Assembly (NCBI GenBank): GCA_905616465.1
Contig: CAJQSX010000005.1
Location: 14,994-78,993 of the forward strand
Direction of reading: 5' to 3'
DNA from: an uncultured Candidatus Pelagibacter sp.
GTDB lineage: Bacteria; Pseudomonadota; Alphaproteobacteria; Pelagibacterales; Pelagibacteraceae
Length of the DNA stretch: 64,000 nt
A model generated the notes under the pieces. It was not told where the DNA came from, searched no databases, and saw only the letters and a program-made list of their open reading frames with translations. The translations under genes were made by a program, and so were the position numbers. Positions 9,807-20,466 of this stretch are shown in pieces. Position 1 is the stretch's first letter. Each line of letters begins with the position of its first letter.

Positions 9807-11288
9807 TTAACCCATAGTAAAAGGATCTGATATTGGCTTATCAGAAGAGTTGTACCATGTTGTTTTTATTCTTGTGTATTCTTTAATAGACTCAATTCCT
9901 GCTTCTTTACCATAACCGCTGTCTTTTATTCCTCCAAATGGTGCCATAGGAGAAATTAATCTATATGTGTTTACAAAAACTATTCCTGCTCTAACTGCTT
10001 TAGATACCCTCATACCTCTTCCAAGGTTGGAAGAATAAACTCCAGAAGATAGCCCATATTTATTGTCATTCATTAGTTTTATTGCCTGGTCTTCTGTATC
10101 AAATTTCATTACAGACAATACTGGACCAAATAATTCATTTTCAGCCGTAGGTAAGTTGTGATTTTTACATTCAATTATTGTTGCTGGAAAATAATAACCC
10201 TTATTAGATATATTAGATCTTTTGCCTCCACATCTAATTTCTCCGCCCTGTTCAACAGTAGCTTTAATATTCTTTTCTATATTTTCTAATTGTTTAAAAC
10301 TATTTAAAGGACCCATTTGAGTATCTTTATCCATTGGTGCGCCCAATTTTATCTTTTCTGCCTTTGCTACTAATTTGTCTAAAAATTCATTGTAAATTTC
10401 AGACTGTATATAAAGCCTTGATCCGGCAATGCAACTTTGGCCACTTGCACCAAATATACCAGCTGTAATTCCATTAAGTGCATTTTCTTGTTCTGCATCG
10501 TTAAATACAACAACAGGACTTTTACCACCAAGCTCCAAACTAACTTGGGATAAATTTTCAGCAGAGTTTTTTATAATATGTTTTGCTGTCTCAGGTCCAC
10601 CAGTGAATGCAATTCTTTCTACAAGATTATGTGTAGTCAGAGCCTTTCCACAAGGTTCACCTAAGCCTGTTATTATATTAACTACTCCTTTTGGTATTCC
10701 TGATTTTTCAACTAATTTTGCAAATTCCAACAAAGTTACGGGTGCAAGCTCAGAAGCTTTTATTACCACTGTATTTCCCATCGCTAATGCGGGCGCGAGT
10801 TTTACAGCAGTCAATAACATTTGAGAATTCCATGGAATAATTGCAGCCACTACACCGATGGGTATTCTAGTTGTTGTTACTTGCATGTCTGGTTTATCTA
10901 TTGGAACTACAGTGCCTTCAATTTTATCTGCAAGGCCTGCAAAGTAATCATAGTATTCTGCAATATAGATAGCCTGTGATTTAGTTTCTCTAAAAATTTT
11001 TCCTGTATCGATAGTTTCAATAGTACCGAGATGTTCAGCATTTTCTCTTAATTGATCTGCTAGAGATCTTAAATATTTAGCTCTATCTCTTGGATGTAAA
11101 TTGGCCCATGAATGTTCAAAAGCTTTTTGTGCAGCCTTAACTGCTTTATCAACATCTTTTGTACTTGCCTCAGGTACAGTTGCCCAAACCTCATTATTTT
11201 CTGGATTTAAAGTTTTAATTGTTTTACCAGATTCAGAGTCAACCCACTGACCATCTATGAACATTTTAAAGTTTTGAATTTTTGTCAT
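9807..11288 (-). CDS. Aldehyde dehydrogenase family protein, TgnC-like
   Basis: ALDH motifs PWN, FTGG, LELGGKSP, GQSCIAG, ELFGP. Segments DTGKIFRET, ADKIEG..VPIDKPDMQ and C-terminal SDKPISDPF match my recollection of TgnC-type enzymes. Confidence 0.85.
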   Translation of the reverse strand: MTKIQNFKMFIDGQWVDSESGKTIKTLNPENNEVWATVPEASTKDVDKAVKAAQKAFEHSWANLHPRDRAKYLRSLADQLRENAEHLGTIETIDTGKIFRETKSQAIYIAEYYDYFAGLADKIEGTVVPIDKPDMQVTTTRIPIGVVAAIIPWNSQMLLTAVKLAPALAMGNTVVIKASELAPVTLLEFAKLVEKSGIPKGVVNIITGLGEPCGKALTTHNLVERIAFTGGPETAKHIIKNSAENLSQVSLELGGKSPVVVFNDAEQENALNGITAGIFGASGQSCIAGSRLYIQSEIYNEFLDKLVAKAEKIKLGAPMDKDTQMGPLNSFKQLENIEKNIKATVEQGGEIRCGGKRSNISNKGYYFPATIIECKNHNLPTAENELFGPVLSVMKFDTEDQAIKLMNDNKYGLSSGVYSSNLGRGMRVSKAVRAGIVFVNTYRLISPMAPFGGIKDSGYGKEAGIESIKEYTRIKTTWYNSSDKPISDPFTMG

Positions 11289-12071
11289 TTAATTATTAAT
11301 AAAATTTTTAAGATTAATATTAACATCATCTGCACACTCTATACTACAAAGATGTTTTCCGTTATTTATCTCAACAAAATTTGAATTTATTAAATCATTA
11401 GATAAAGATTTTGACATTTGAGTTGTGGAACTCGTATCACCTGACCCTGTCATGATAAGAGTTTTAGTTTTAATATTTTTAATCATATCAATATTATCTT
11501 GGTGATAAGTAAACAATTTGTATGCTTTTAAAAAATTTAAATGATCGTCATCATCTTTTGTCAAAATTTTGATAAATTGATCATAAATTTTTGGATGGTT
11601 ATTTAAGTATTCATCTGTGAACCATCTCTTGAGTGCCTGTTTTGAAATAGGTTTGTTCAATTTAGCCTGCTCAAATCTCTCTATAACTAAAGCTCTTTGT
11701 TCTACAGTTCTTTTATATGTTGTTCCGATTACTGTAAGACTTTTTAACTTATGTTGAAATTTTGAAGCAAAGTCTAATGCAATTAATGACCCTAAAGAAA
11801 AACCTATAAGGTTAATTTTATCAATTTTTAAAAACTTCAATAAATAGTCTAGTTGATCTGAAAAATCATTTAATGTGACCTCTTTTTTATTGTAAGGAGT
11901 TTTTCCATGCCCCAATAAATCGTAGGTAATTGTTGAGTAGTTATTTAAAGAGTTAACTTGAGAGTCCCACATTTTGTGATCTAGACCAACACCATGAACG
12001 AACACTAATGGCTCAGTGTTATTATCAATGAACGAATGATAATTTTGATTAGGATCAAAATTGTGTGGCAT
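11289..12071 (-). CDS. Alpha/beta hydrolase (TgnD/PcaD-like)
   Basis: HGVG oxyanion motif, YDLLGHG, nucleophile elbow GFSLG, C-terminal His (GKHL). Confidence 0.8.
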   Translation of the reverse strand: MPHNFDPNQNYHSFIDNNTEPLVFVHGVGLDHKMWDSQVNSLNNYSTITYDLLGHGKTPYNKKEVTLNDFSDQLDYLLKFLKIDKINLIGFSLGSLIALDFASKFQHKLKSLTVIGTTYKRTVEQRALVIERFEQAKLNKPISKQALKRWFTDEYLNNHPKIYDQFIKILTKDDDDHLNFLKAYKLFTYHQDNIDMIKNIKTKTLIMTGSGDTSSTTQMSKSLSNDLINSNFVEINNGKHLCSIECADDVNINLKNFINN

Positions 12072-12075
12072 TAAT

Positions 12076-12663
12076 TTATTTGGGATCCAGTCCCATTTCC
12101 TTCATATCTTGATATCTATCACCAGTTCTAGCATGAGCTCTACCACTTGATGCACCACCAATTGCTATAACAATTTCATCACTAAATGGAGCGTCATGAA
12201 TGGTAAATTCATGAGTTAAATAATATGGTCTCAATCCCGAGTCTGTTTTATGCATCATTGGAATTGACATTTTAGATCCTGCGGGACCTCTAGTATTCGT
12301 AAAACTTAAATAAGATGTTCCACCAACAGCATCTCTGAATTTATTTCCAAACCTTAAAGTATGAATAAATGCTGATGCGTGTTCTATTTCACCATCAAGT
12401 CCAACAATACCAGCCTTACCATATGCTAAAATTTTTTCCGGAGAGCCCATTTCTTTTATTAATTCTGACACTAGAATAGTACCTAGTTTGGGGGCTAAAT
12501 CTAAAATGATTGGCTTTAAATCATCAACAAAACCTTTTCCATGCCATGGATTTTTAAATACAGCAGCAACTGAAACTAGTAAAACAGGTTCTTTAGCTTC
12601 TTTACCACCTTCAATAAAAGTTTTATCAACAAATTTTGTAAATTTTCTTAATTCAAGTTTCAT
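12076..12663 (-). CDS. DUF1185 / 'amino acid synthesis' family protein (TgnF-like)
   Basis: AAVFKNPWHGKGF, YGKAGIVGLDGEIEHASA, IPMMHK, DAPFSDEIVIAIG are typical of DUF1185. Confidence 0.8.
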   Translation of the reverse strand: MKLELRKFTKFVDKTFIEGGKEAKEPVLLVSVAAVFKNPWHGKGFVDDLKPIILDLAPKLGTILVSELIKEMGSPEKILAYGKAGIVGLDGEIEHASAFIHTLRFGNKFRDAVGGTSYLSFTNTRGPAGSKMSIPMMHKTDSGLRPYYLTHEFTIHDAPFSDEIVIAIGGASSGRAHARTGDRYQDMKEMGLDPK

Positions 12664-13829
12664 TAACTAGCCTTTTCCATATTTGAATTATCTAAATTAA
12701 TTTTTGGTATCACTTCATCATTAAACAGTTTTATACTTTTCATACAAGCGTCATGCTCTATGCCGGGAAAGTTAGACCATACTTGTAAGTTTTGTAAATT
12801 TAATTCAGATTTTAATTCATTAATTTTATTAACCACATACTCCGGTGTACCAAATAATAAATTTCTTTTATGTAAGAAATCATAATTAAGTAAATCTAAT
12901 TTATGTTTTGTTTCTGGTAGTTCTTCACCTGGATCCATATGATTACCCAAACCTCTCCAATGACAAACCCATTTCATATAATTAATAATATGTTCTCCAG
13001 CTAATTTTTCTGCTTCTTCCATAGTTTCCGCCACAAACATATCCCTAACTAAAGACACACCTTCTCCCAATGGCACATCTCTGTTTTCAGCTTTCGATTT
13101 TGCATCCCTATAAATCTCAAATCTTGACTTCAAAGCTTTTACAGTTGGAATCCACATTATAGTGTTTAATCCATTTTGTGCAGCCCATTCTATCGATCTT
13201 GCTCCATCAACAACTTGCCATATAGGAGGGTGTGGTCGTTGCATTGGTTTTGGAACAACGCTAATTTTTTTTATTTCATTTGTTTTTGTATCTAAAAATT
13301 CCTCACTAGGCGGACTCATATCGTGCTGCCAAGTAAAACCAGGAGTAGGGTAATTATAAAATTCACCTTGGTGACTAAAAAATTTTTCAGTCCATGCTTT
13401 TTTCATCACTGTTAAAGTTTCATCAAATAATCTAAAATTTTTTGCCTGATCTTTTAAGTCAGCTTCTTTATTCATGTTGATAGCTTCTCTGCCATATATT
13501 CCTCTACCAATACCAATATCAACTCTTCCATTTGATAATTGATCCAATAAAGCTATGTCTTCTGCAAGACGTATTGGGTTATGAAAAGTAATTACATTAC
13601 AGGCTTGTCCAATTCTAATTTGTTTTGTTCTTGCAGCAGCATCTACACCCATCATTAAAGGGTTCGTACACGATTCCATTCCTTCATGATTAAAGTGATG
13701 CTCTGTATACCAGATAGAGTCCCAATTATTTTCATCACAGTATGTGGTGATTTCTTTAGTCTCGTTTAATAATTGATTGTATGGTTTTTGATTCCAGTTA
13801 GTGGTGTTACAAAAATATCCAAATTTCAT
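12663..13829 (-). CDS. Luciferase-like (LLM class) flavin-dependent monooxygenase
   Basis: WYTEHHF, NPIRLAEDIALLDQLSNGRVDIGIGRG, PKPMQRPHPPIW, GTPEYV; strong SD (AAGGAGG) upstream. Confidence 0.88.
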   Translation of the reverse strand: MKFGYFCNTTNWNQKPYNQLLNETKEITTYCDENNWDSIWYTEHHFNHEGMESCTNPLMMGVDAAARTKQIRIGQACNVITFHNPIRLAEDIALLDQLSNGRVDIGIGRGIYGREAINMNKEADLKDQAKNFRLFDETLTVMKKAWTEKFFSHQGEFYNYPTPGFTWQHDMSPPSEEFLDTKTNEIKKISVVPKPMQRPHPPIWQVVDGARSIEWAAQNGLNTIMWIPTVKALKSRFEIYRDAKSKAENRDVPLGEGVSLVRDMFVAETMEEAEKLAGEHIINYMKWVCHWRGLGNHMDPGEELPETKHKLDLLNYDFLHKRNLLFGTPEYVVNKINELKSELNLQNLQVWSNFPGIEHDACMKSIKLFNDEVIPKINLDNSNMEKAS

Positions 13830-13996
13830 TCAAACCTCCTTAAATAATTAAATTTAAAGACGACTGATCCCACTTTCGTATTCTTTAGTACCGTTTAAAC
13901 TTTAAGTAACGACGAGTTATGTGCGCTTTTTACCAAACCTTATTTTAACTAGACTCCTTATTCAATATATATTTAATCCAATATTATAGGTAATTT

Positions 13997-14740
13997 ATGA
14001 AATTAAATAAAATTGAGCCAAAATTTATCTTTAAATCGAACCCAAGAATTGGCTTAATTACATTAGGTAGCGATTTCAGAATTGAAAAAGATTTTAATAA
14101 TCTAATATATGGAAGAGACATTGATCTCTATGTAAATAGAATTCATTGCTACAATCCACTTACCAACGACACCTTAGCTAAAATGGCCGAAGATATTACC
14201 GAAGTTACCAAAGATATTCTTCCTGACCAAAAAATAGATTGCATTGCTTATGGCTGCACCTCAGGAACAGTAGCTGCAGGATACGATGTGATAAAAGAAA
14301 AAGTAAATTTAGCCAAACCAGAGGCAAAAGTAACAACTCCTATAACTTCTGCAATTAAAGCCTTAAAAGTTTTGGGAATAAATAAAATATCTATCTTTAC
14401 ACCTTACACAAAAACAATAAACGATTCTGTAGCTAGTTATTTTAAAAAAAGAAATATCACTATTAATTCTTTGAGCTATTTTGATATTGATTCAGATCTG
14501 GATATTGGAAAAGTTGATGAACAATATTTATTTGAAGTTCTGTCTAAAACAGATTTAGTAGATAGCGATGCATTATTTGTTTCCTGTACAGCTTTACCTG
14601 TTTTATCAATAATAGATAAACTGGAGAAAAAACTTAATAAAGTAATTCTATCAAGCAACCAAACTTTAATCTGGGACTCACTTAATGAAATAAATTATAA
14701 AGAAAAAATTGAAGGTTTTGGAAAATTATTTAATCACTAA
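13997..14740 (+). CDS. Asp/Glu racemase / maleate isomerase family protein (EutA-like)
   Basis: Two catalytic-type Cys motifs YGCTSG and FVSCTAL, plus TPY and SSNQ; directly upstream of a doeA/eutD-like gene. Confidence 0.75.
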   Translation: MKLNKIEPKFIFKSNPRIGLITLGSDFRIEKDFNNLIYGRDIDLYVNRIHCYNPLTNDTLAKMAEDITEVTKDILPDQKIDCIAYGCTSGTVAAGYDVIKEKVNLAKPEAKVTTPITSAIKALKVLGINKISIFTPYTKTINDSVASYFKKRNITINSLSYFDIDSDLDIGKVDEQYLFEVLSKTDLVDSDALFVSCTALPVLSIIDKLEKKLNKVILSSNQTLIWDSLNEINYKEKIEGFGKLFNH

Positions 14741-14745
14741 TAAAT

Positions 14746-15915
14746 ATGAATTTTACTAAAGAAGAATATAAAACTAGGTTAAAGAAAGTTCAAAGCTTAA
14801 TGCAAGAAAAAGGCATAGAGCTATTGATATCTAGCGATACAGCCAATATGAATTATTTAACCGGTTATGATGCTTGGTCATTTTATTATGCACAAGCAGT
14901 AGTGGTCCATGTAAATGCTGAAGAGCCATTATGCTGGGTAAGAAAACAAGATTCAGGTGGCGCTTATATAAAAACATATTTAAAAAATGAGAATGTTTTA
15001 ATTTATGATGAAAAATATATTCACACATGGCCACTTCATCCTTATGATAACCTTGTAAACATCATAAAGGAGAGAAATTGGGATAAGCTTACAATTGGCC
15101 TAGAAATGGATAGTCATTATTTCACAGCTTATTGTTATGAAAAAATGAAACAAGGTTTGCCTAATGCTAAGTTAAAAGACTCTAAAAGGTTAGTTAACTG
15201 GGTAAGAGTAGTTAAATCTAATGCTGAGATTGAGTTTATGAAATCAGCAGCAATAATCTCTCAAAAAGGAATGCAAGTAGCAATTGACGTAATAAATCCT
15301 GGTGTAAGACAGTGTGATGCCGTCGGTGAAATTCAAAAAGCATTATTTTATGGTACGCCAGAGTTTGGAGGTGAGTATTCGAGTATTGCAACTTTATTGC
15401 CAACAGGAAAAGGAACTTCTGCTTCACATTTAACAGCAACCCAAGACAAATTTATTAAAGGAGAGGCGACAATTATTGAACTTTCTGGTGTCTATCAACG
15501 ATACCACGTTCCAATGGCTCGTACAGTTTTACTCGGTAAGCCTGACCAAAAAAAGATTGATACTATGAAAAAAACAAATGAGGCACTCCAGGCGGGTATT
15601 GATTTAGCTAAATCTGGAAATACAGCAGATGACGTTGCTCAAGCATTTTGGAAAATATTAGATAAATATGGAATAGAAAAAACTTCAAGAACTGGATATT
15701 CAATTGGCATAGGTTATCCGCCTGATTGGGGTGAGCATACATTAAATATTTCAAAAGGTGATATGACTGTTTTACAACCAAACGTTACTTTTCACATGAT
15801 TGCAGTGATGCAATTTGGAAATTGGGGAGTAGAAGCATCTGAGGCAATAAGAGTCACAGATAATGGCGCAGAACTGTTTTGTAATTTTTCTAAAGAACTT
15901 CATGTTAAAAGTTAG
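14746..15915 (+). CDS. doeA: Ectoine hydrolase-like M24 family protein (DoeA/EutD)
   Basis: NMNYLTGYDAWSFY, LVNWVRVVKS, YHVPMART and RTGYSIGIGYPPDWGE match EutD/DoeA signatures. Confidence 0.75.
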   Translation: MNFTKEEYKTRLKKVQSLMQEKGIELLISSDTANMNYLTGYDAWSFYYAQAVVVHVNAEEPLCWVRKQDSGGAYIKTYLKNENVLIYDEKYIHTWPLHPYDNLVNIIKERNWDKLTIGLEMDSHYFTAYCYEKMKQGLPNAKLKDSKRLVNWVRVVKSNAEIEFMKSAAIISQKGMQVAIDVINPGVRQCDAVGEIQKALFYGTPEFGGEYSSIATLLPTGKGTSASHLTATQDKFIKGEATIIELSGVYQRYHVPMARTVLLGKPDQKKIDTMKKTNEALQAGIDLAKSGNTADDVAQAFWKILDKYGIEKTSRTGYSIGIGYPPDWGEHTLNISKGDMTVLQPNVTFHMIAVMQFGNWGVEASEAIRVTDNGAELFCNFSKELHVKS

Positions 15916-15971: not shown

Positions 15972-17051
15972 ATGAATAAAGAATTCGTCAAATTTGATAA
16001 AGTAGATAAAAGTTATGACGGTAAAATACTGGTCGTAAAAGATCTTCAGTTAGATATTGAAGAGGGTGAATTTGTTACAATGTTAGGCCCCTCAGGTTCT
16101 GGTAAAACTACTTGTCTAATGATGTTAGCTGGTTTTGAAACACCAACACACGGTGAAATTTATTTAAATGGAAAAGCAATATCAAGTATTCCTCCTCACA
16201 AAAGAGGAATTGGAATGGTATTCCAAAACTATGCATTGTTTCCTCATATGACTGTATATGAAAATTTAGCATTTCCATTAAGAGTTAGAAAAATTCCAAA
16301 AGATGAAGCAGATAAAAAAATTGATAAAGCATTATCAATGGTATCACTCCAAGGTTTTGCCGAAAGAATGCCTGGACAATTATCGGGTGGTCAACAGCAA
16401 AGAGTGGCGGTAGCAAGATCACTAGTATTTGATCCACAACTAGTATTAATGGATGAGCCTCTAGGAGCATTAGATAAAAATTTAAGAGAGAGTATGCAAT
16501 ATGAAATTAAACATATTCATGAAAGTATTGGAGTAACAGTCGTTTATGTTACACATGATCAAAGTGAAGCTTTAACAATGTCAAACCGAATTGCAGTTTT
16601 CAATGATGGTAAAGTTCAGCAACTTTCAAGTCCAGATGAATTATATGAAAAACCAGTTAACTCTTTTGTTGCAGAGTTTATTGGAGAGAACAATACATTT
16701 GCAGGTGAAGTTTCGGATATTTCAGGTGGAAAATGCAAAGTTAAATTAGCTAATGCAGAAATATTAGCAAATCCAATTTCGGTTAAAAGAAAAGGGGAAA
16801 AAACAAAAATTTCTTTAAGACCTGAAAGAGCCTTGATAAATCCCAGTGATAAAATGGACAACATACATTCAGGTAAAGTTGAAGAAGTGATATATCACGG
16901 AGATCATACAAGAGTACGAATGAATGTATTAGGTAATAATCAATTTATTCTAAAAGTTCCAAACAGCTCAGCCAACCTGGATATTAAGCTTGGCAAAGAG
17001 ATTAAAATTGGATGGAACAGTGAAGACGCTAGAGCTCTAGACCCTAAGTAA
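15972..17051 (+). CDS. potA: ABC transporter ATP-binding subunit, PotA family
   Basis: GPSGSGKTT, VFQNYALFPHM, LSGGQQQR, LMDEP; C-terminal TOBE-like domain. Confidence 0.9.
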   Translation: MNKEFVKFDKVDKSYDGKILVVKDLQLDIEEGEFVTMLGPSGSGKTTCLMMLAGFETPTHGEIYLNGKAISSIPPHKRGIGMVFQNYALFPHMTVYENLAFPLRVRKIPKDEADKKIDKALSMVSLQGFAERMPGQLSGGQQQRVAVARSLVFDPQLVLMDEPLGALDKNLRESMQYEIKHIHESIGVTVVYVTHDQSEALTMSNRIAVFNDGKVQQLSSPDELYEKPVNSFVAEFIGENNTFAGEVSDISGGKCKVKLANAEILANPISVKRKGEKTKISLRPERALINPSDKMDNIHSGKVEEVIYHGDHTRVRMNVLGNNQFILKVPNSSANLDIKLGKEIKIGWNSEDARALDPK

Positions 17052-17090
17052 TAATCAGTAAATACATTGTTAATTAAGTAAAATGGGCTG

Positions 17091-17121
17091 TTGACTCTGA
17101 TTATCGACTTTGTTGTACTCT
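17091..17121 (+). promoter_or_regulatory. Possible internal sigma70 promoter for the SBP gene
   Basis: TTGACT at 17091-17096. The -10 is weak (TGTACT at 17 bp spacing or TACTCT at 19 bp). Same CTGTTGACT context as the tmoX promoter. Confidence 0.35.
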
Positions 17122-17155
17122 CTTTTTTAAAAAATAACGTTTAAACGGAGGAAAT

Positions 17156-18274
17156 ATGAAAACTATTAGTAAATTATTACTAGCTATCACTTTTGCTATC
17201 TCTGTAACTACTTCAGCATTTGCAGTAACTGTAGTGTCTTGGGGTGGGTCTTACACAGAGTCTCAAAAGTTAGGTTATGGTGATCCTACTGCTAAAGCAA
17301 CCGGTATAGAAATTAACTGGGTTGATTATTCAGGTGGATTATCTGAGATTAAAGCACAAAAAGAAGCTGGCGCAATTACATGGGATATTATCGATGTATA
17401 TGCAATGGATACTATCACTGGATGTGACGAAGGATTATTTGTTGAATTTGATTTTGACAAAGACTTTCCAGCTGCACCAGATGGAACAGTTGCGAGTAAA
17501 GATTTCTTTGCTCCAATGCCGAGTAAATGTGCTGTAGGAAATATTTTATATTCTTGGACTTACGCTTATAATACTGAAACTATTAAAGGCACTCCAAAAA
17601 CTATCAAAGATTTCTTTAACACTAAAAAGTTCCCTGGAAAAAGAGGTATCTACAAAGGTGCTTTAACTAATCTAGAGATCGCTTTAGCTGCAGATGGAAT
17701 TAAACCAGGTAAAGGTGGAGAAAAAATCTATAAAGCTTTAGACACAGAAAAAGGTGTTACTAGAGCTATGGATAAGATCAAAGAATTATGTACAGATCCT
17801 AATGGTGGATGTGTATTTTGGTCTGCAGGTGCTCAACCGCCAGAATTATTAGTTTCAGGTGAAGTCGTTATGGCTACAGGTTGGAATGGTAGATTCTTTA
17901 ATGCAATAGTGGAAGGTGCTCCATTAAAACAAGTATGGGATGGACAAGGTCTTGACTACGAATACTTCGTACAAGTTAAGGGTGGACCAAACGATGCTAA
18001 TGGAAAAGCTTTAAAAGCTTTAGCTATGATGACAAGTACGGAGATGTTAGCGGGTAGTGCAAAACATATTGCATACGCTCCATACAGAATATCTTCTATT
18101 GATATCATGCAAGCAGGAGAACCTTGGTTTAAAGATGGTAAAACTAATATGGTACCACAAATGCCAACTGCTCCCGCAAACACTAAAAACTACTTCTTAG
18201 TAGATCCAATTTACTGGGCTGATAATGGTACAGAGCTTGGTGAAAAATGGGAAGCTATGAAAGCTGGTTTTTAA
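17156..18274 (+). CDS. potD: ABC transporter substrate-binding protein, PotD/PotF family (substrate uncertain)
   Basis: Signal peptide ending AFA; VVSWGGSY, WDIID, DFFNTKKFPGKR, GWNGR; strong SD GGAGG. Confidence 0.85.
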   Translation: MKTISKLLLAITFAISVTTSAFAVTVVSWGGSYTESQKLGYGDPTAKATGIEINWVDYSGGLSEIKAQKEAGAITWDIIDVYAMDTITGCDEGLFVEFDFDKDFPAAPDGTVASKDFFAPMPSKCAVGNILYSWTYAYNTETIKGTPKTIKDFFNTKKFPGKRGIYKGALTNLEIALAADGIKPGKGGEKIYKALDTEKGVTRAMDKIKELCTDPNGGCVFWSAGAQPPELLVSGEVVMATGWNGRFFNAIVEGAPLKQVWDGQGLDYEYFVQVKGGPNDANGKALKALAMMTSTEMLAGSAKHIAYAPYRISSIDIMQAGEPWFKDGKTNMVPQMPTAPANTKNYFLVDPIYWADNGTELGEKWEAMKAGF

Positions 18275-18311
18275 TTTAAGTTTTAAACAACTAAATTATA
18301 TACTATAATTT

Positions 18312-18341
18312 AAGGGCGGTTATTTTATAACCGCCCTTTTT
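18312..18341 (+). terminator. Intrinsic terminator or mRNA-stabilising hairpin after the SBP gene
   Basis: AAGGGCGGTTAT-ttt-ATAACCGCCCTT, a 12-bp perfect stem ending in a T run. Confidence 0.85.
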
Positions 18342-18345
18342 ATTT

Positions 18346-19599
18346 ATGAACTCAGAAACACAAAAAATTTTAACAACAGATGGAATACCTTTAGAGGTAA
18401 GTCTAAAAAAAGCTGAACGTAAAAATAAGATTAAAGCTTTCTTACTTGTTGCTCCTTTATTATTATTTATAATTATTACTTACGTAATTCCAATTGGTAG
18501 TATGCTTACGAGAAGTATTGATGACAAAATGGTTACCGAGATGCTTCCTAAAACATTTAAATCAATGGAGACATGGGATGGACAAGAGTTACCACCAGAA
18601 GAAGTTTTTGAAGCTTTTTACTTAGATTTTCAAAATTTAGTTGATGAAAGACGTGAGGGTAAACTATCTACACAATTAAATTATACAAAAAATGGCTTTA
18701 AAAGTATTATTAAAAAATTAAGAAGAAAATCAAAATCCTTTGTTGAAGGTAATTATAAAGAACAAATAATGTCAGTCCACAAAAGGTGGGCAGATGTCGA
18801 ATACTGGCAAGCAATAAAAAGAAGAGCCCCAGCATATACTGTTCAAAAATATTTAAAAGGCATAGACATGTATAAAAATGATAAAGGAGAAATAGTTAAT
18901 GTATCCGAAGATAGAAGAATTCACAGACTATTATGGTTAAGAACAATAGAAGTTGCATTATTTGTAACAATTTTTTGTTTTTTAATGGCGTATCCAATAG
19001 CTCATTTGTTAGCTACTTTGCCTATGAAGTATAGCAACTTGCTAATGATCTGCGTACTACTTCCGTTTTGGACCTCATTACTTGTGAGGACTGCCAGTTG
19101 GATGATATTGTTACAACAGCAGGGTATAGTAAATGATTTCTTTGTCTTCATTGGTTTGGTTGCTAATGATGCGAGACCTGAGATGATGTACAATAAAACT
19201 GGAACATACGTTGCAATGACACAAATTTTGTTACCATTTATGGTTTTGCCACTTTATAGTGTTATGAAAACTATTTCACCTAGCTTAATGAGGGCAGGAA
19301 AATCATTAGGCGGAACACCATTTACAACCTTTTGGAAAATTTATTTTCCTTTAACAATACCGGGTATTGGTGCCGGTTGTTTGTTAGTTTTCATTTTAGC
19401 AATAGGTTATTACATTACTCCGGCCTTAGTTGGAGGTGCATCTGGTACTCTTATAAGTAACCAAATAGCTTTTCACATGAAAGCTACACTTGATTGGAGC
19501 TTCGCTTCAGCAATGGGATTAATGCTTTTGACTGGAGTTTTAGCAATCTATTGGGTTTACAATAAAATAGTAGGAATTGATAATATCAAATTAGGATAA
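18346..19599 (+). CDS. potB: ABC transporter permease, PotB family, with large periplasmic insert
   Basis: LLPFWTSLLVRT, LPFMVLPLY, EAA-like loop LMRAGKSLGG, YITPALVGG. Confidence 0.88.
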   Translation: MNSETQKILTTDGIPLEVSLKKAERKNKIKAFLLVAPLLLFIIITYVIPIGSMLTRSIDDKMVTEMLPKTFKSMETWDGQELPPEEVFEAFYLDFQNLVDERREGKLSTQLNYTKNGFKSIIKKLRRKSKSFVEGNYKEQIMSVHKRWADVEYWQAIKRRAPAYTVQKYLKGIDMYKNDKGEIVNVSEDRRIHRLLWLRTIEVALFVTIFCFLMAYPIAHLLATLPMKYSNLLMICVLLPFWTSLLVRTASWMILLQQQGIVNDFFVFIGLVANDARPEMMYNKTGTYVAMTQILLPFMVLPLYSVMKTISPSLMRAGKSLGGTPFTTFWKIYFPLTIPGIGAGCLLVFILAIGYYITPALVGGASGTLISNQIAFHMKATLDWSFASAMGLMLLTGVLAIYWVYNKIVGIDNIKLG

Positions 19600-19608
19600 T
19601 TAAAAAGA

Positions 19609-20466
19609 ATGGCTTTACCAAGATATACAGAACCACATTACAGAGCTTGGCACTATCTATATTTAACTATTTGTACAGCTGTTTTCTTTTTTTTAATTGC
19701 ACCTCTGTTTGTAATATTCCCTTTATCTTTCAATTCAGAGGAATTTTTAGTTTTTACAGATGGCATGATGAGACTTGATCCAGATGCTTTTTCTACCAGG
19801 TGGTACAAGGATATGGTTTATGGAACTAAAAATCCATGGGGCTTAGCTGCAAGAAATAGTTTTATAATCGCATTTTTTGCAACAATTGGTTCAGTTTTAC
19901 TAGGAACTGTTGCCGCATTGGGATTGAGTAGTAGACATATGCCTTACAAGGGTTTGATCATGGCTATATTAATTTCTCCAATGATTGTTCCATTAATTAT
20001 TTCAGGTGTAGCGATCTTTTTCTTTATGGCTAAAGCTGGTTTAGCAGCAACGCATACAGGAATTATTCTTGCACATATAATTTTAGGTACACCATTTGTT
20101 GTAATCACAGTTACAGCTACTTTATCTGGCTTTGATCACAGTGTAACAAGAGCAGCAGCCAGTCTTGGAAGCAATCCAGTAAATACTTTTATGAAAATTA
20201 CTTTACCGTTAATCTTACCAGGTGTAATATCGGGTGGTTTGTTTGCTTTTGTAACTTCATTCGATGAAGTTGTGGTTGTCCTATTTTTAGCTGGTCTTGA
20301 AAGTACAACTATTCCAATTCAAATGTGGACTGGTCTAAGAGAACAATTAAGCCCAACTATTCTCGCAGTAGCAACTTGCTTAATTGTTTTGTCAACTTTA
20401 ATACTTGTAACCGCTGAACTCTTGAGAAGAAGATCTGAGAGACTCAGGGGCATAAATCGACATTAA
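19609..20466 (+). CDS. potC: ABC transporter permease, PotC family
   Basis: SPMIVPLII, RAAASLGSNP, FVTSFDEVV, TIPIQMW. Confidence 0.88.
   Translation: MALPRYTEPHYRAWHYLYLTICTAVFFFLIAPLFVIFPLSFNSEEFLVFTDGMMRLDPDAFSTRWYKDMVYGTKNPWGLAARNSFIIAFFATIGSVLLGTVAALGLSSRHMPYKGLIMAILISPMIVPLIISGVAIFFFMAKAGLAATHTGIILAHIILGTPFVVITVTATLSGFDHSVTRAAASLGSNPVNTFMKITLPLILPGVISGGLFAFVTSFDEVVVVLFLAGLESTTIPIQMWTGLREQLSPTILAVATCLIVLSTLILVTAELLRRRSERLRGINRH

Follow-up and report, generated by a model that had tools for sequence, protein, structure and literature searches.

A conserved Pelagibacter operon resembling the trigonelline (tgn) pathway, with a luciferase-like oxygenase outside the TgnB clade and a candidate leader RNA

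Which compound is broken down by a compact SAR11 operon whose genes recall the catabolism of trigonelline, and which enzyme would open the ring? The question is raised by a 64,000-nucleotide stretch of DNA (the window) from an uncultured Candidatus Pelagibacter sp. (assembly GCA_905616465.1, contig CAJQSX010000005.1, positions 14,994 to 78,993 of the forward strand), in which a first-pass annotation had seen four tightly packed minus-strand genes. The open reading frames, their lengths and their junctions were all reproduced: from the luciferase-like monooxygenase (LLM) through the DUF1185 protein and the alpha/beta hydrolase to the aldehyde dehydrogenase (ALDH), the genes are joined by a 1-bp TAATG overlap, then a 4-bp gap, then a 0-bp gap. 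Pfam recognizes all four proteins, none of which passes a specific NCBIfam cut-off:

12663..13829, minus strand: LLM (PF00296), a luciferase-like flavin monooxygenase of a long-insert clade (AlphaFold, trees), 388 aa; predicted ring-opening oxygenase
12076..12663, minus strand: DUF1185 protein (PF06684), TgnF-like by identity (53%) and tree, 195 aa; putative enamine/imine-processing or accessory role
11289..12071, minus strand: alpha/beta hydrolase (PF00561), TgnD-like by residue signature, 260 aa; predicted N-formyl amide hydrolase
9807..11288, minus strand: ALDH (PF00171) of the TgnC family by tree and 51% identity to an NCBI-named TgnC, 493 aa; predicted to oxidize the ring-opened aldehyde/lactol

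On balance, we lean toward reading this operon as a pathway for the catabolism of trigonelline (N-methylnicotinate), varied in that an LLM other than TgnB is predicted to open the ring. The known counterpart is tgnABCDEF, the trigonelline degradation cluster of Acinetobacter baylyi ADP1 reportedly described by Perchat et al. in 2018. Both systems combine, in one operon, an LLM, a TgnC-family ALDH, a hydrolase with the TgnD signature and a TgnF-like DUF1185 protein. The SAR11 operon differs in drawing its oxygenase from another LLM clade, in lacking the TgnA reductase, TgnE, the permease and the GntR regulator, in its gene order, in a candidate riboswitch at its 5′ side and, in some lineages, in an added thiamine diphosphate (ThDP) enzyme. 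It likely works like the tgn pathway, yet stands outside it as judged by TgnB and TgnA. No paper on the four-gene SAR11 operon was found in the literature searched, a body that leaves most subscription journals outside its coverage.

The operon is genuine and occurs widely. In a scan of GTDB, 310 related stretches were confirmed, 80 of which were kept for locus counts, and all four genes follow in identical order in each of the 71 kept loci with at least 2.9 kb downstream (80 fetched), so the arrangement is not due to chance. Across a 201-genome family sample, the LLM was matched in 78 of the 124 genomes that belong to the window's genus (one of the 78, G129, flagged "unpublished") and in 3 of 76 others, one of these three matches being only a 28-residue fragment. 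The SAR11-like host proposed from the letters alone is supported as Pelagibacter: the nearest GTDB loci are 90–96% identical and, with one exception, are titled Pelagibacter or Pelagibacteraceae. That exception, contig L012 of a metagenome-assembled genome titled Flavobacteriaceae, carries a Pelagibacter operon at 95% identity among SAR11 neighbors, and its title is probably a binning error. The source assembly itself is an incomplete (67%) Pelagibacter genome of 0.8 Mb. Promoter and terminator scans at the operon stayed at chance level. Metatranscriptome contigs from four studies cover relatives of all four genes in 24–30 of 30 bins and were not used as evidence, because contigs cannot reveal transcription, strand or start.

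The tie to trigonelline catabolism is carried by the three enzymes downstream of the LLM. As reference we used an A. baumannii cluster (L006) whose proteins, or members of their 90% clusters, bear the NCBI names trigonelline monooxygenase oxygenase component, (Z)-2-((N-methylformamido)methylene)-5-hydroxybutyrolactone dehydrogenase and (E)-2-((N-methylformamido)methylene)succinate hydrolase; the set was enlarged with similar clusters from eight further plasmid records. Identities to L006 are 51% for the ALDH, 53% for the DUF1185 protein, 27% for the hydrolase and 26% for the LLM. The ALDH, described at first sight as strongly TgnC-like, is by identity and tree placement a TgnC-family dehydrogenase: it falls within a cluster-associated family (support 100/99), forms a 99/100 clade with canonical TgnC, lies nearer to it than do the ALDHs of two clusters having TgnB-type LLMs, and retains intact catalytic motifs. 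Likewise, the suggested kinship of the DUF1185 protein to TgnF agrees with its place inside a TgnF-like cluster-associated clade (95/91), where it is 51–60% identical to cluster members, as against weaker matches to solved DUF1185 structures. In one locus without DUF1185 (L110), a RidA-family gene (PF01042) occupies its place, beside a BCCT betaine transporter. RidA presumably shares the chorismate-mutase-like fold of DUF1185, so perhaps both hydrolyze enamines. The available passages on DUF1185 describe that fold as chorismate-mutase-like and do not mention YjgF (PMC2954203), and TgnF is introduced in another partial source as a DUF1185 homologue said to stimulate TgnE (PMC7913881). In the hydrolase, a Ser92-Asp212-His240 triad is accompanied by Arg121, Arg132, Arg149-Trp150 and Tyr184, and a nine-residue signature, which includes three cap arginines, recurs in 10 of 10 TgnB-type and 7 of 7 SAR11-type clusters and in none of seven controls.

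Phylogeny, which the first-pass annotation had put forward as a check, thus places the ALDH with TgnC and the DUF1185 protein with TgnF but leaves the LLM outside the TgnB clade. The annotation had already called the LLM distant from TgnB, pointing to the strings EHHFNHEGMESC and TWQHDMSPP, both of which are present; the trees carry this further, to a different clade rather than a divergent TgnB. A single clade of TgnB-type and SAR11-type LLMs was rejected by the approximately unbiased (AU) test (delta lnL 53, p-AU 0.0013, 24-row tree). These 24 rows were picked, after a first 65-row tree built by quick search only, for a careful repeat, and the trees omit near-duplicate SAR11 rows and one fused open reading frame. 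By its tree placement, then, the LLM is not a TgnB orthologue, and canonical TgnB was not recovered from the 121 Pelagibacteraceae genomes searched (best matches 28–35%). Its long-insert clade includes proteins labelled Dehalococcoidia and Actinobacteria. The AlphaFold model (pLDDT 94) is a luciferase-type TIM barrel whose top Foldseek matches are luciferases and RslO1 at 20–24% identity; no close solved relative was found. The LLM has Tyr112 and Asn323 in common with the TgnB-type LLMs, and these residues occur in only 2% and 9%, respectively, of 43 other LLMs.

Loci outside SAR11 bear on how such an oxygenase came to sit beside tgn-type genes. Eleven of 13 high-GC metagenome loci with a SAR11-type LLM (47–69% identity) have at least one tgn-type neighbor, and 5 of the 13 have a TgnA-like reductase. 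More distant alphaproteobacterial LLM relatives (38–44%) have DUF1185, ALDH and reductase neighbors in 0 of 4 cases within about 6 kb. Arthrobacter L092, with a TgnB-type LLM, and L103, with a SAR11-type one, possess sister ALDHs (66%) and DUF1185 pairs at 59% and 73%, while their LLMs are 28% identical. In L170, the LLM is SAR11-type and the ALDH, a partial one, is sister to canonical TgnC (99/97). Because this combination and the L092/L103 pair each require an exchange, the LLM types appear from the trees to have changed places at least twice beside the same downstream genes, in one direction or the other.

The order of the tgn reactions is background knowledge, backed in part by passages of PMC8269262, PMC7913881 and PMC13236597, together with the NCBI enzyme names. 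What was observed is which genes are present, their homologies, the exchange of oxygenases, the co-location of the genes and the lack of TgnA; for the chemistry and the substrate, we infer the following course. A divergent osmolyte ATP-binding cassette (ABC) transporter would import the betaine, and the LLM, using reduced flavin mononucleotide (FMN) and O2, would convert the pyridinium ring to an N-methylformamide aldehyde/lactol, which the TgnC-like ALDH would oxidize to a dicarboxylate. The TgnD-like hydrolase would take off formate, and the DUF1185 protein would aid release of methylamine from the enamine, so that succinate semialdehyde would be left once CO2 is lost. Further use of methylamine and formate would run through gmaS/mgs and fhs, and a leader RNA would control translation of the operon. 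Reduced flavin and the final succinate semialdehyde dehydrogenase (SSADH) would be supplied by unlinked genes, for which one pair in the own genome offers candidates:

G000:C23:23636-26409 (L095:15637-18409): an SSADH-like ALDH and, two genes on, an AzoR-like FMN reductase; candidates for the TgnE and TgnA functions

That these functions are missing from the operon had gone unremarked for TgnA in the first-pass annotation, as had the conserved leader. No TgnA reductase (PF01613) was found in the 80 GTDB loci or in 79 further low-GC loci, and TgnE, the SSADH gene of the tgn cluster, is not in the operon. The reductase families PF00881 and PF00175 were not recovered from the five genomes searched for each, and PF03358 FMN reductases are present in 5 of 5; at locus L106, a PF03358 FMN reductase stands after the ALDH. 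The SSADH-like ALDH on C23 groups with the SSADH of L006 at 100/99 on long branches and scores below its NCBIfam cut-off; its adjacency to the AzoR-like gene recurs in none of five other short loci.

The proposed import step draws on the genes that face the operon across the leader:

13997..14740, plus strand: EutA-like racemase/isomerase (TIGR02990, below cut-off)
14746..15915, plus strand: DoeA-like M24 hydrolase (TIGR02993, below cut-off)
15972..20466, plus strand: divergent PotABCD-type ABC transporter, with its binding protein at 17156-18274 (E 8e-176 to PDB 8JV1-8JV4)

The binding protein matches a PotD-named structure at that E value and, from annotation, context and a by-eye comparison of gene ends, is likely the orthologue of SAR11_1336. 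Trigonelline, glycine betaine and dimethylsulfoniopropionate (DMSP) bind SAR11_1336 with similar affinity by differential scanning fluorimetry, according to an authors' supplement that resembles a reviewer reply, and the same supplement places trigonelline at 0.2–1 nM (PMC11485210, in part). The files of that paper that were searched make no mention of homarine, and its available passages, which describe an osmolyte transporter with trigonelline among its ligands, draw no link to the four-gene operon. The divergent binding protein lies at most 8 kb from the operon in 52 of 62 loci, and the EutA-like gene is present in 57 of the 62 with 8 kb upstream. Regarding the idea that the operon opens trigonelline or a related N-methyl heterocycle, this neighboring transporter favors trigonelline, as does the failure to find canonical TgnB in the family genomes; homarine, the marine candidate named at first, is unlikely (see below). 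The EutA-like and DoeA-like genes stand first in the osmolyte transporter operon, score below the cut-offs for ectoine genes and probably represent a separate osmolyte pathway.

Several observations weigh against trigonelline. The LLM, the enzyme that determines specificity, is 26% identical to the NCBI-named TgnB of L006 and 24–30% across TgnB types, with an insert of ~30 residues and many lineage-specific conserved residues. The SAR11 proteins fall below the ranges that canonical orthologues span among themselves (TgnC 66–71%, against 51% here; TgnF-type DUF1185 64–75%; TgnD 39–55%; TgnB 62–76%), and the reference behind these values is the NCBI-named L006 cluster, not the assayed ADP1 enzymes. 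At 27% identity to TgnD, the hydrolase scores 175 bits against a TgnD profile, versus 188 and 192 for two unrelated SAR11 hydrolases. PF01613 is found in 0 of 5 complete genomes, against 13 of 14 in the control. The nearness of the transporter is unspecific because, if SAR11_1336 is its orthologue, its ligand range is broad (glycine betaine, DMSP, ectoine). Of 79 other low-GC loci, 31 have a ThDP enzyme 3′ of the LLM, a gene superfluous to the tgn pathway. Particulate trigonelline, finally, is described as far scarcer than homarine (PMC8269262, in part).

In a possible, if less favored, reading, the same ring-opening chemistry would act on another N-heteroaromatic compound (N1-methylnicotinamide, nicotinate or a further pyridinium betaine, for instance), whose analogous N-formyl product would be handled by the TgnC-, TgnD- and TgnF-like enzymes. 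The LLM forms a separate clade with conserved pocket-region residues of its own, the downstream enzymes have diverged further than true Tgn orthologues have, and other SAR11 carry an inserted ThDP enzyme, sometimes with a methyltransferase, or retain only LLM, ThDP enzyme and hydrolase. The ThDP gene is absent, however, from all 80 of the closest loci and from the five genomes searched, the hydrolase retains all three cap arginines of TgnD, and LLM types appear to have been exchanged on near-identical downstream sets, which is easiest if both make the same product. We attach very little weight to the proposal that no aromatic ring is opened at all, the LLM acting instead on an aliphatic betaine of the carnitine/butyrobetaine/ectoine neighborhood, as a Baeyer-Villiger or N-dealkylating oxygenase followed by generic enzymes. 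Copies of the operon in other SAR11 genomes do lie amid butyrobetaine-hydroxylase-like, carnitine-dehydrogenase-like, BKACE and choline-dehydrogenase-like genes, the operon here faces the EutA- and DoeA-like genes, and luciferases and tailoring monooxygenases come closest to the LLM among solved folds; against this, the flanking genes vary, whereas three genes of the operon trace specifically to tgn families and co-travel in low- and high-GC genomes.

A second route for homarine (N-methylpicolinate), in which ring cleavage would lead through an N-formyl dehydro-glutamate to 2-oxoglutarate and methylamine, is also improbable, because the published hom operon is built from different families and sits elsewhere in the same genomes. 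Its SAR11 counterpart was approached through a membrane dipeptidase, presumed to be a lead to the hom locus. Dipeptidase, 550-aa and 203-aa genes occur together, as a homC-homB-homA-type locus separate from the operon, in all 4 of the complete genomes checked, each of which has the operon as well, and not in the incomplete own genome. The SAR11 locus is 59/46/28% identical to a Ruegeria TM1040 cluster ordered as regulator, ALDH, dipeptidase, BCCT, 567-aa protein, DUF3726 and Ldh-family gene, mirroring the published Cobetia order; both loci are assigned to hom by gene order and size, not by published sequences. No HomD orthologue lies within ~7 kb of the SAR11 hom-type loci. The operon does not co-locate HomA/B/C/D: its proteins have no significant similarity to HomA/B/C types, and its ALDH is 31% identical to a HomD-type protein. 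The published operon, as far as its partial source goes, comprises a ~700-nt homA, a ~1,700-nt homB, a peptidase and an ALDH (PMC13236597). From the same passages, homABCDER resembles the operon in opening an N-methylpyridinium betaine, in using an ALDH and an amide hydrolase and in occurring in SAR11; it differs in its DUF3726, ~560-aa and membrane dipeptidase proteins, in its separate locus and in ending in N-methylglutamate. Redundancy would also be unlikely in a streamlined genome. In favor of homarine, the compound is abundant (PMC8269262, in part), the hom pathway accumulates C7H9NO5, by formula count an isomer of the TgnC product (PMC13236597, in part), L110 has a RidA-family gene in place of DUF1185, and a 2-oxo-acid product would be a fitting substrate for a ThDP decarboxylase. 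Four genomes (L216–L219) have the hom-type locus without an ALDH within about 7 kb, so that their homD step is unaccounted for.

For the operon read as a trigonelline pathway, control would lie in two elements between the LLM and the EutA-like gene:

13853..13930, minus strand: conserved leader motif with an inner stem of variable length (locus counts, pair counts, Rfam); candidate riboswitch
13835..13861, minus strand: Shine-Dalgarno AGGAGG in a predicted A/U-rich hairpin 5′ of the LLM start (minimum-free-energy fold)

Of 153 low-GC loci, 150 have the motif 5′ of the LLM and three have a version that is one base off; it stands there in 0 of 13 high-GC loci and occurs once in the own genome. 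Because its inner stem varies in length (8 to 36 nt), an RNA is a better fit than a protein-binding site. Under a three-helix model, 93.5% of alignment cells are paired over 46 distinct short-loop copies, against 33–44% for slid registers, although the model was derived from the same sequences on which it was scored. Four pairs have two-sided change, a count reached in 0 of 500 shuffles, and the covariation score is modest, since 19 of 500 shuffles attain it. In the window's copy, the outer helix is degenerate and the folding z-score of the whole leader (−0.91) is not significant alone. Rfam gave no match at E<=1 for the window region and two other copies. Conserved SAR11 intergenic RNA candidates have been described in P. 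ubique (Meyer et al. 2009), and the motifs named in the available passages do not include the LLM leader (PMC2704228). One of them, bablM, was considered and rejected as the leader, since it precedes SAR11_0109 and not a luciferase-like gene (PMC2704228).

Tentatively, most Pelagibacter may carry a hitherto undescribed system for trigonelline or an unrecognized N-heteroaromatic, with a new class of ring-opening LLM repeatedly exchanged with TgnB, no dedicated reductase, and a riboswitch of a new class, responsive to the substrate or to a ring-opened intermediate. Should the LLM open trigonelline, the ocean's most abundant bacterial group would hold a missing sink for a nanomolar marine osmolyte and a route from a ring compound to methylamine. 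Such a sink would be invisible to a TgnB homology search, and the LLM would serve as a marker gene for metatranscriptomes. The leader would be a testable orphan candidate riboswitch with few candidate ligands.

The one-carbon genes previously noted in the window hold up: the type III glutamate-ammonia ligase, fhs, soxB-family, tmm and tdm genes pass NCBIfam cut-offs, and mgsABC-type domains match Pfam, all at 23–50 kb from the operon. The suggestion that methylamine and formate feed gmaS/mgs and fhs is chemically plausible but not specific, because those genes also serve the catabolism of trimethylamine and its N-oxide. The methylated-amine cluster as a whole (36805-63999) comprises the type III glutamate-ammonia ligase, an Amt-family transporter, mgsABC-type genes, a second glutamine-synthetase-like gene, tdm, a betaine-type ABC transporter, tmm, fhs and sox-type genes.

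Several operon variants were seen in other SAR11. A 566-aa ThDP enzyme, sometimes with an S-adenosylmethionine-dependent methyltransferase, is translationally coupled between LLM and DUF1185 (L178:15627-17327, L192:12056-12685); its best NCBIfam match, below cut-off, is sulfoacetaldehyde acetyltransferase. In L143, L149, L153 and L167, the operon is reduced to LLM, ThDP enzyme and hydrolase. Some Pelagibacter have a second, unrelated LLM (344 aa) paired with an alpha/beta hydrolase amid carnitine/butyrobetaine-type genes (L178:4215-6026, L185:7914-9728). In L225 (G004:C1:1005000-1024000), additional leader copies occupy the space from the EutA-like gene to the LLM, next to inserted genes for tetratricopeptide-repeat proteins, which suggests that this spot is an insertion hotspot duplicating the leader.

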